Assembly: GCF_003334305.1 (NCBI RefSeq)
Contig: NZ_QOWS01000007.1
DNA: 64,000 nucleotides
Strand: one strand, 5' to 3'
DNA from: Escherichia coli
GTDB lineage: Bacteria > Pseudomonadota > Gammaproteobacteria > Enterobacterales > Enterobacteriaceae
Both the position numbers and the translations under genes were made by a program. Positions 52,685 to 53,774 of this stretch are shown here, one piece after another. Numbering within the stretch: position 1 is the stretch's first letter; each line of letters starts with the position of its first letter. The notes beneath the pieces are model-generated. The model was not told the DNA's origin. It ran no database searches and saw only the letters and a list, made by a program, of their open reading frames with translations.

Positions 52685-52736
52685 TCTCAATGCCGGGTTT
52701 AAGCCTGGTATTAAAAGTGCTGGCAAACGCAAAACT

Positions 52737-52835
52737 GCCTGATGCGCTACGCTTATCAGGCCTACGTGGCTCATGCAATATATTGAATTTGCACGATCTT
52801 GTAGGCCGGATAAGGCGTTCACGCCGCATCCGGCA
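52737..52835. repeat. BIME (two inverted REP units) downstream of srmB
   Basis: gcctgatgcgctacgcttatcaggcctac ... gtaggccggataaggcgttcacgccgcatccggca. Confidence 0.8.
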
Positions 52836-52892
52836 TGAATAAAGCGCACTTTGTCGACAAGTTAAATGCCGGGTTTAATCCCGACATTATTT

Positions 52893-53774
52893 TTATCCAG
52901 CCACAAAACTCTCTTCAACACACTGAATAAAAGTGTGCATCGCCGGGCTAACCGCTTTTCCAGCATGGTGTGCGCACATGGCCGTAATGGTCTGCGACTG
53001 TTCGCCAAAAGGCAATTCAATTAATTCTCCGCTCTCAAGCTCTTTTTCCACCGCAAAGCGGGGCAAGTAACTGACACCGATATTCGCCGCGACACAACGT
53101 TTGATACTTTCAATGCTTAACAGCTCAATGGTGTTTTCCACCGTGATCCGCCGCTGACGCAGCGTGCTCTCAAATATCTGCCGGAAGACACATTGCGGTT
53201 CGTTGATAATAAAGCTACAGGCGTTATGTCTTCCCGGCTCAGTAAAATCGACATCTGCAATTTGCGGTGAAGCCACCAGCACCAGCGATTGTTCACCCAA
53301 CTCTCGTCGGTTCAGGGCATCATCATTCCCTACGCGATAAAAGACGCCGACATCGGCCTCATCATTCAGTAGCGCATCACGGATCACGTAACAGTTCAGC
53401 GACTGCAACGATAAACGCACTTTTGGTGCGCGTTGCCGAAAACGCTGCAACACCTGCGGCATTCGGTAAGAGAGCAACGTTTCGCCCGAAACAACGCGTA
53501 GTTCCCCGTCCGGATCTGACTCCTTTTTGGCAGCCTCACGAAGCGTATCCATCACTCGGGTAAGTTCATAAATGTGCGGCAGCAACTTTTTTCCTTCGCG
53601 GGTAAGGCACATCCGTCGGCCAATTTTCTCAAATAACTGGACTGAAAACTCCTGCTCAAGCTGCTGAATATGAAAAGTCACCGTCGATTGTGTACAGCAC
53701 AATTTTTGCGAAGCTCGCAAAAAGGAACCCTCTTCCACCACGGTTTTAAGCGTAATAAAACGGCGCAGATCCAT
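52893..53774 (-). CDS. yfiE: LysR-family transcriptional regulator YfiE, 293 aa
   Basis: ORF track 52893..53819; start set to ATG at 53772-53774 (MDLRRFITLKTVVEEGSF...). Confidence 0.8.
   Translation of the reverse strand: MDLRRFITLKTVVEEGSFLRASQKLCCTQSTVTFHIQQLEQEFSVQLFEKIGRRMCLTREGKKLLPHIYELTRVMDTLREAAKKESDPDGELRVVSGETLLSYRMPQVLQRFRQRAPKVRLSLQSLNCYVIRDALLNDEADVGVFYRVGNDDALNRRELGEQSLVLVASPQIADVDFTEPGRHNACSFIINEPQCVFRQIFESTLRQRRITVENTIELLSIESIKRCVAANIGVSYLPRFAVEKELESGELIELPFGEQSQTITAMCAHHAGKAVSPAMHTFIQCVEESFVAG

Follow-up and report, generated by a model that had tools for sequence, protein, structure and literature searches.

A complete BIME-1 between srmB and yfiE of Escherichia coli is flanked by two copies of the srmB terminator hairpin, a probable target duplication

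Introduction

Why is the BIME that lies between the convergent genes srmB and yfiE of Escherichia coli bracketed by a short direct repeat, and what does this repeat tell us about the way in which the element came to be there? REP sequences and BIMEs, known for 40 years, outnumber all other repeats in E. coli. Presence/absence polymorphism of BIME-1 among E. coli isolates has been documented (PMC1187871, citing Bachellier 1997), and the mechanism of REP/BIME insertion in vivo is still called unknown in PMC3333891 and in a preprint (bioRxiv 2026 10.64898/2026.03.23.713779). The locus treated here belongs to a 64-kb stretch of E. coli DNA (contig NZ_QOWS01000007.1), the whole of which we call the window. 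A first-pass annotation, made from the letters of the window, had pointed out a 14-bp direct repeat around two REP units downstream of srmB and had left two readings side by side, namely coincidence and a footprint left by a duplication that accompanied REP insertion. We have followed up this observation by comparing the locus with its orthologues, with other BIME-1 sites and with the literature on related elements.

Results

The repeat pair and the element between its copies

The 14-mer AATGCCGGGTTTAA is present exactly twice in the window, both times on the + strand, at 52689-52702 and 52865-52878. The second copy lies where the first-pass annotation had put it, and the first, which had been placed at 52688-52701, starts one base later. 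The bracketing itself had been described correctly, since both copies are outside the two REP units. When up to one mismatch is allowed, 0.03 matches to the 14-mer are expected by chance, and none of 100 shuffles gave two. The repeat extends well beyond 14 bp: it is an imperfect direct repeat of 24-25 nt, whose copies at 52689-52713 and 52865-52889 agree at 21 of 25 positions with a spacing of 176, and each copy by itself is a GC-rich hairpin of the form AATGCCGGG, 6-nt loop, CCyGryATT. The features of the region are as follows.

51350..52684, + strand: srmB coding sequence, 444 aa, the upstream gene (ORF list; srmB annotation in orthologous RefSeq records)
52689..52713, + strand: hairpin copy 1, AATGCCGGGTTTAAGCCTGGTATT(A), differing from the ancestral hairpin by two C>T substitutions in the 3' arm, no T-run after it
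52714..52735, + strand: BIME-1 left end, AAAGTGCTGGCAAACGCAAAAC, family consensus GAGACTGATGACAAACGCAAAAC, one arm of the terminal inverted repeat (paralogue alignment)
52736..52765, + strand: REP unit 1, TGCCTGATGCGCTACGCTTATCAGGCCTAC (inverted repeats; invariant among BIME-1 copies)
52766..52800, + strand: BIME-1 L linker, with the IHF-consensus-like ATTCAATATATTG on the - strand at about 52777-52789 (conserved in all paralogues)
52801..52835, + strand: REP unit 2, GTAGGCCGGATAAGGCGTTCACGCCGCATCCGGCA (inverted repeat; invariant among BIME-1 copies)
52836..52864, + strand: BIME-1 right end, TGAATAAAGCGCACTTTGTCGACAAGTTA, family consensus ...GCGCACTTTGTCAACAATCTGA, the other arm of the terminal inverted repeat (paralogue alignment)
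52865..52889, + strand: hairpin copy 2, AATGCCGGGTTTAATCCCGACATT(A), with one loop G>T and one 3'-arm G>A
52889..52896, + strand: T-run of the original predicted srmB terminator, ATTTTTAT, kept only after copy 2
52893..53774, - strand: yfiE, LysR-family regulator, the convergent downstream gene (ORF list; 882 bp in orthologous RefSeq records)

The T-run at 52889..52896 overlaps the yfiE stop codon (52893-52895, - strand). The two REP units are mutually inverted, and we take the unit at 52736-52765 to be of the Y type and that at 52801-52835 to be of the Z1 type. Judged by eye, the putative IHF site ATTCAATATATTG fits the known consensus WATCAANNNNTTR with one mismatch, and the linker is matched by the Rfam family ES036/CssrF on the - strand at 52758-52800 with 49.9 bits, as against a gathering score of 37.6. 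A promoter scan of the region found nothing, a terminator scan of the filled window gave no site that passes, and no further BIME-1 copy was found when such copies were sought within the 64 kb.

The insert between the hairpin copies is 151 bp long (52714-52864). From left to right it carries a conserved end motif, REP Y, the L linker (about 35 nt, including the IHF-like site), REP Z1 and a second conserved end motif. Paralogues at entD-fepA, yddM-fdnI, cueO-gcd and prohibitin-tkt match it with 86-93% identity from positions 1-11 to 140-147, and this near end-to-end match shows the insert to be a complete BIME-1 and not a random REP-bearing fragment. The consensus ends across loci, GAGACTGATGACAA... 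and ...TTGTCAACAATCTG(A), form imperfect terminal inverted repeats (11/14); those of the srmB copy have diverged further. At the level of sequence, the insert thus displays every property by which a BIME-1 (RIP/RIB) is recognized: inverted Y and Z1 REPs, the linker, conservation over 140-145 nt and a position at the 3' end of a gene.

Empty and filled alleles of the srmB-yfiE spacer

We searched 5,426 complete E. coli genomes for the region, using the full 441 bp and counting a match as one place when at least 80% was covered. The whole region is present in 2,525 of them, and a 74-bp query over the left junction finds the filled allele in 2,977. The difference between these counts includes elements interrupted by insertion sequences; strain Z1322HEC0003, for example, has an IS621 within its srmB-yfiE BIME. 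The exact identity of the 14-mer is strain-dependent: the version of the window is matched exactly in about 1,200 of about 2,980 genomes with a filled site, and K-12 and many other strains carry AATGCCAGGTTTAA in copy 1.

About 45% of the 5,426 genomes have a shorter site. In the records that we sampled down the ranking, genomes without the full region span exactly 176 bp less, a shortfall identical to the spacing of the repeat copies. Such empty alleles, for example those of EcN, O157:H7 and EC10, have a srmB-yfiE spacer of 32 bp with a single perfect hairpin AATGCCGGGTTTAAGCCCGGCATT followed by ATTTTTATCC. The first-pass annotation had recommended an alignment with orthologous sites that lack the BIME, and we have made it. 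In addition to the empty E. coli alleles, the sites of E. albertii, E. whittamii and another genome of the E. coli cluster are exactly 176 bp shorter with one perfect hairpin and a T-run, and among the orthologues compared there was neither an empty site with both copies nor a failure of the repeat to be conserved. The footprint reading therefore gained support from the single copy in orthologous empty sites.

In a terminator scan of the empty allele, the hairpin (record positions 430-453) together with ATTTTTATCC came out as terminator-like, with 10 pairs of which 6 are GC, and in sequence this combination of hairpin and T-run agrees with the definition of an intrinsic (Rho-independent) terminator. 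By the same sequence evidence, the repeated unit is the predicted intrinsic terminator hairpin of srmB, a point absent from the first-pass annotation, as were the true length of the duplication (24-25 nt) and its recurrence at further BIME-1 loci.

Which state came first

To judge the direction of change, we took the srmB 3' region from 80 species-level genomes of Enterobacteriaceae. Most of these species have a single hairpin and a T-run after srmB; in Citrobacter, Klebsiella, Kosakonia, Enterobacter and Salmonella arizonae, one related hairpin, (A)ATGCCGGG or ACGCCGGG, then a loop and the complement, is found with its T-run directly 3' of srmB. Since the outgroups have one hairpin, a single srmB terminator hairpin is ancestral. 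A single crossover between the diverged copies of filled E. coli alleles cannot yield the perfect hairpin seen in empty alleles; rebuilding it would take three crossovers, with copy 1 at position 15, copy 2 at 18, copy 1 at 20 and copy 2 at 21.

Two Escherichia lineages other than E. coli have the orthologous insertion, with element ends that are atypical in the same way. Escherichia sp. MOD1-EC7003 has one unit at srmB-yfiE, and Escherichia sp. E1V33 has two tandem 176-bp units with three perfect hairpins (2.1 copies). The insertion, being common to these lineages, is therefore either old or has been moved by recombination, and some of the empty alleles of E. coli could be secondary precise losses, or could result from introgression, instead of reflecting a recent gain.

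Recurrence at other loci

The same pair of states has been found at five loci (srmB-yfiE, yddM-fdnI, artJ-rlmC, metE-ysgA and uspB-pitA), each with a one-hairpin empty allele and a filled allele in the order hairpin, BIME-1, hairpin. A single hairpin, AAATGGCGC..GCGCCATTT, is present in the empty allele of yddM-fdnI; O157:H7 has the filled form with a perfect duplication (27/27 nt), and K-12 has two units with three hairpins (TRF period 178). In one strain, an IS200 lies beside the yddM-fdnI hairpin. Filled artJ-rlmC sites were counted in 3,192 genomes and filled uspB-pitA sites in 1,940; at both loci the empty allele consists of one hairpin and a T-run. An ECOR29-type allele of artJ-rlmC carries an orthologous, diverged BIME-1 in which only the left hairpin copy is missing, and one-sided sites can therefore arise through loss of a copy. 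The filled form of metE-ysgA was found in one metagenomic contig and in none of the 5,426 E. coli genomes, the sampled records of which have a single-hairpin site.

Two-unit arrays occur at three loci, namely srmB (E1V33, period 176), yddM-fdnI (K-12) and the prohibitin-tkt spacer, for which alleles with 1 and 2 units are known (period 174). Both srmB-yfiE and yddM-fdnI have alleles with 0, with 1 and with 2 units. Units within one array are 96-97% identical and have locus-specific changes and ends in common, and the sequences of these array loci are those expected from tandem-repeat evolution by unequal exchange or slippage. An independent re-insertion as the source of the second unit was ruled out, because the common locus-specific substitutions and the identity of 96-97% favour local duplication.

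A survey of BIME-1 sites

For a wider sample, we scanned metagenomes with a BIME-1-specific pattern, which gave 120 loci representing 33 distinct BIME-1 sites, and we aligned locally the 36 nt to the left of each element with the 36 nt to its right, taking 1,056 non-cognate pairs of flanks as the null. The cognate flanks scored above the 99th percentile of the non-cognate pairs at 10 of the 33 sites, as against 0.33 expected. The 10 duplications are GC-rich hairpins of 18-27 nt. Each extends from one foot of its hairpin to the other, leaving 0-2 nt unpaired at each end, and the inserts between the copies measure 149-154 nt, or 141 nt at one locus with a shortened linker; A-runs and T-runs beside the hairpins are not duplicated.

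Hairpins are also enriched at the element ends in general. When a stable hairpin was defined by a folding energy of -10 kcal/mol or lower within 30 nt, one was present at the left end of 15 of the 33 elements, as compared with 2 of 33 control windows taken 60-90 nt away (p=2e-4), and at the right end of 9 of 33, as compared with 0 of 33 controls (p=4e-3). An ORF ends within about 80 nt of the left element end at 24 of the 33 loci. About two thirds of the sampled loci show no recognisable duplication, with a hairpin only on the left at about 8 sites, only on the right at 2-3 and none at some others; duplication is therefore not obligatory, or copies are often lost.

Other descriptions of the junctions were considered and set aside. 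The hairpin is neither a part of the element nor derived from a donor, because the flanking hairpins are locus-specific and match their own empty allele and each other. An inverted duplication of the palindrome was ruled out by the asymmetric loops (TTTAAG, CTTTTACA and others), which are in direct orientation. A unit bounded by TnpA_REP CT sites (GAGAC^TGA, AATC^TGA) was dropped, as GAGAC/TGA, which it leads one to expect in empty sites, is absent from them.

Divergence of the two hairpin copies

The ancestral srmB hairpin folds with -16.4 and -15.0 kcal/mol as + and - strand RNA, respectively. The copies in the window have become asymmetric: copy 1 is predicted to fold with -12.2 kcal/mol as + strand RNA and with -2.9 as - strand RNA, and copy 2 with -8.3 as + strand RNA and with -12.3 as - strand RNA. 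In copy 1, the two C>T changes in the 3' arm leave G-U pairing only in the srmB-sense RNA, and in copy 2 the G>A change means that pairing is better kept in the yfiE-sense RNA. In strains of the K-12 type, position 7 of copy 1 has also changed from G to A. This compensatory substitution re-establishes Watson-Crick pairing with one of the new T residues, and it also abolishes the exact 14-mer match in these strains. The predicted energies, which reflect 4-5 substitutions, suggest that each copy may now serve a different transcript, copy 1 that of srmB and copy 2 that of yfiE.

Discussion

The most probable explanation and a possible mechanism

We consider it probable that the insertion of a complete BIME-1 of about 150 bp duplicated its target, the intrinsic-terminator palindrome of srmB, and that the two repeat copies are the product; the evidence for insertion is wholly comparative. 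On this explanation, the ancestral 32-bp spacer would have held one hairpin AATGCCGGGTTTAAGCCCGGCATT followed by ATTTTTAT, and insertion in an ancestor of a part of E. coli and of some sister Escherichia would have produced the present order of hairpin, BIME-1, hairpin and T-run. Once two hairpin copies were in place, unequal exchange or slippage between them would give alleles with 0, 1 and 2 units.

As for how such a duplication is made, we put forward, only tentatively, that BIME-1 may spread by insertion at extruded intrinsic-terminator palindromes, with a structure-defined duplication that varies in length and comprises the whole hairpin. The target would be a terminator palindrome that has extruded into a hairpin or cruciform, and on each strand an end of the element would be joined at the hairpin's 5' foot. 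With joining at the 5' feet, the stagger would equal the length of the palindrome, and gap filling would copy the hairpin as a whole. The polarity would be that of classical staggered-cut transposition, with the stagger set by structure, and a stagger set in this manner would let the duplication vary in length (18-27 nt) and yet equal one hairpin each time. A hairpin-sized duplication of variable length would not be expected from an enzyme with a fixed stagger that acts on linear duplex DNA. We infer the cruciform-foot geometry solely from the coincidence of the duplication boundaries with those of the palindrome. The obvious candidate enzyme would be the REP-associated tyrosine transposase (TnpA_REP/RAYT; IS200/IS605-like, Y1, HUH-type), which is the accepted candidate where BIME mobility is concerned.

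Alternative explanations

The order of events may be turned around, if the filled state is the older one in Escherichia and the single-hairpin alleles of E. coli are precise deletions between the hairpin copies, by recombination or slippage. This is the alternative that we take most seriously, though we regard it as rather unlikely. It is favoured by the occurrence of this BIME-1, unusual ends included, at the orthologous site of two other Escherichia lineages, which shows that the insertion predates or crosses species boundaries, by the known change of unit number between 0, 1 and 2, and by E1V33, in which the hairpins are all perfect, so that a deletion would leave a single hairpin indistinguishable from a never-filled site. 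It does not explain how two copies originated, and an insertion-linked duplication is still needed because the outgroups from E. albertii to Klebsiella have one hairpin; moreover, the copies in the present filled alleles of E. coli have diverged and offer no single-crossover route to the perfect hairpin, and metE-ysgA is empty throughout the E. coli genomes searched. Coincidence, which the first-pass annotation had kept as an option, takes the repeat for a chance match or for convergent GC-rich terminator-like sequence, and its plausibility is an a priori one, both copies being palindromic and GC-rich. We give it practically no weight in view of the chance expectation stated above, the extension of the match to 21/25, a spacing equal to the length difference between empty and filled alleles, loops that indicate direct and not inverted duplication, and recurrence at more than 10 loci.

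Two further explanations, both of which we think improbable, accept the duplication and derive it differently. E. coli is known for RecA-independent template switching at palindromes, and we count this in favour of a process in which a replication fork stalls at the terminator hairpin, the nascent strand copies a BIME-1 located elsewhere through microhomology and then returns and copies the hairpin again. Hairpins adjoin the BIME-1 ends at most loci and would thus supply GC-rich palindromes for microhomology in both donor and target, and the sequences 5' of the srmB hairpin (TAATCTCA) and of the artJ hairpin (GATTCAGA) are similar to the right end of BIME-1 (CAATCTGA). Flank microhomology of this kind is, by inspection, not general across loci, and at 10 loci the junctions lie exactly at the conserved ends of BIME-1 (GAGACTG..., ...AATCTG) and not at variable microhomology points within chimeric hairpins; the copies of a young insertion are identical (27/27 at yddM-fdnI in O157), and donor hairpin sequence was not seen. 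In the other process, BIME-1 inserts beside the hairpin without duplication, and the second hairpin is added later by RAYT-driven, rolling-circle-like local re-replication, after the amplification model of Ton-Hoang; beginning or terminating at cleavage sites beyond the BIME, it would take flanking DNA along. One-sided combinations of hairpin and BIME are common, arrays of hairpin and BIME are known, and TnpA_REP cuts at a distance from REPs in vitro and has been proposed to add BIME units and to sequester flanks (PMC3333891). The ECOR29 allele, however, represents a one-sided state reachable by loss of a copy, and re-replication predicts the order hairpin-BIME-hairpin-BIME, whereas every array observed ends with an extra hairpin. 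The boundaries, too, are the feet of the palindrome and not the CT cleavage motifs reported for TnpA_REP (PMC3333891).

Relation to known elements

The element at srmB resembles the published BIME-1 (RIP/RIB) in having two inverted REPs, a linker of about 35 nt with an IHF-like site, flank motifs and a location at the 3' ends of convergent genes. It differs from BIME-1 as described in the literature consulted, where the units are single-copy, in being flanked by a duplicated terminator hairpin and in the occurrence of two-unit arrays. BIME-1 is also comparable to a REPIN, since it is built from two REPs and can fold into a long hairpin, the form by which REPINs are defined; the enzyme proposed for them recognises hairpins and makes its cuts close to the feet. 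It differs from what is expected of REPIN/RAYT (IS200/IS605) in that 10 of 33 loci have a duplication of an entire palindrome of 18-27 nt and the CT cleavage sites lie off the junctions; a shared tetranucleotide at the BIME-1 junctions was not evident among the loci surveyed. Transposition of the IS200/IS605 type, the chemistry attributed to RAYT, places the element 3' of a short target and leaves that target unduplicated (PMC3333891, PMC2817692). Published RAYT models predict no duplication either, and they include secondary structure extruded in single-stranded or supercoiled DNA (PMC3333891). With a chemistry that makes no target duplication, the expected enzyme does not obviously fit.

Similarity to the MITEs (Correia, ERIC/IRU and RUP) lies in the non-coding length of about 150 bp, the imperfect terminal inverted repeats, the flanking target repeats and the polymorphism among strains; Correia elements carry an IHF site, and BIME-1 has an IHF-like one. 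MITEs differ in their fixed, short duplication of 2-10 bp, made by a DDE transposase, as compared with the locus-variable, palindrome-sized one of BIME-1. A similarity of the BIME-1 ends to the IS30 inverted repeat is conceivable, and we make no claim of it. The use of a DNA stem-loop at the 3' end of a gene as a safe site is found also in class C group II introns, IS1397, the IS621/IS110 family and ISPpu9/10. These terminator- or REP-homing elements come with an enzyme or RNA guide of their own, which sets them apart from the non-coding BIME-1, and we know of no whole-hairpin duplication made by any of them.

Our literature search met with no description of duplicated terminator hairpins, terminal inverted repeats or arrays of hairpin and BIME-1, the key BIME papers of the 1990s being outside its reach. 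To our knowledge, no bacterial mobile element has been described with a structure-defined target duplication of a whole hairpin as its signature. The pattern may already have been noted in the older papers (Bachellier 1997, 1999; Boccard & Prentki 1993; Oppenheim 1993).

Significance

The repeat family concerned is well known. The duplication of a whole terminator hairpin where BIME-1 has inserted offers an informative clue, open to experiment, to the long-standing question of its spread. It argues for a structure-guided event and does not fit the duplication-free chemistry assumed for RAYT, and the srmB-yfiE spacer and at least nine similar loci offer matched empty and filled alleles with exact junctions. 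The preferred target of BIME-1 is the intrinsic-terminator hairpin at the end of a gene, a safe site, and the duplicated hairpins permit both the gain and loss of units and the divergence of the terminator copies. For the annotation of 3' UTRs, this means that the terminator of a gene can shift about 175 nt downstream in half of all strains. If insertion at extruded palindromes is true, the duplicated hairpins would be the first direct footprint of the colonisation of enterobacterial genomes by REPs and BIMEs.

Insertion sequences at BIME-1 and its target hairpins

The target hairpin at yddM-fdnI appears to be shared by elements of different kinds. In the yddM-fdnI spacer of E. coli isolate 68 (L096), an IS200/IS605-family tnpA element lies directly 5' of the single terminator hairpin, with its insertion point within the A-run; in other strains this same hairpin serves as the target of BIME-1. 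The site seems to draw more than one hairpin-associated element.

An insertion sequence is also found within the repeat itself, and REP sequences are a known target of IS621. The srmB-yfiE BIME of E. coli Z1322HEC0003 (L221), which is the same BIME as that of the window, holds the transposase gene of IS621, a member of the IS110 family. Because IS621 lies inside the BIME, the srmB-yfiE search returned the split matches H37-H39, and this position also explains in part why, among 5,426 complete E. coli genomes, 2,977 left junctions were counted against 2,525 intact 441-bp regions. In the assembly of E. coli BS-04 (L004, about 500-610), REP unit 1 of the srmB-yfiE BIME is split by a 109-nt block of near-pure poly(A), which is probably a long-read assembly artefact.

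The bases preceding two target hairpins show a likeness to the conserved right end of BIME-1, CAATCTGA.

Bases just 5' of the target hairpins
Window 52679-52688: TAATCTCA, just 5' of the srmB target hairpin
L219 (artJ locus), about 134-141: GATTCAGA, just 5' of the artJ target hairpin

Such a likeness was not seen at most other BIME-1 loci; it may be due to chance or may be a hint of microhomology use.

Related repeats and small-RNA families

On the minus strand of the window, positions 52758-52800 match the Rfam family ES036 (CssrF sRNA) with 49.9 bits, above the gathering score of 37.6, and this span consists of the BIME-1 L linker and the adjoining REP edge; the "sRNA" family therefore appears to take its model from a segment of BIME-1, a dispersed repeat. 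The REP units of the srmB-yfiE BIME-1 gave only a sub-threshold match to naRNA4 (CssrE). Upstream of the BIME-1 array at prohibitin-tkt, the prohibitin-family gene contains a 33-bp tandem repeat within its 3' end (L092 12-89; 2.4 copies, 75% matches).

Allelic variation

The artJ-rlmC spacer of E. coli ECOR29 and similar strains (L220) carries an orthologous, strongly diverged BIME-1 of about 86% identity in an allele 24 bp shorter. Here the left hairpin copy alone is missing and BIME-1 sits 5' of a single terminator, which illustrates how a one-sided arrangement of hairpin and BIME can come about.

At srmB-yfiE, the yfiE-proximal flank of filled E. coli alleles (window 52896-52912) is ATCCAGCCACAAAAC, which they have in common with Escherichia sp. 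E1V33 (L009 2619-2640) and the empty strain EC10, and the B2 and O157 empty alleles (L001, L002) have ATCCCGGCAAAAAAC in this flank, with no match to ATCCAGCCACAAAAC. This distribution of flank sequences across filled and empty alleles suggests that the srmB-yfiE spacer has undergone recombination or introgression between lineages.
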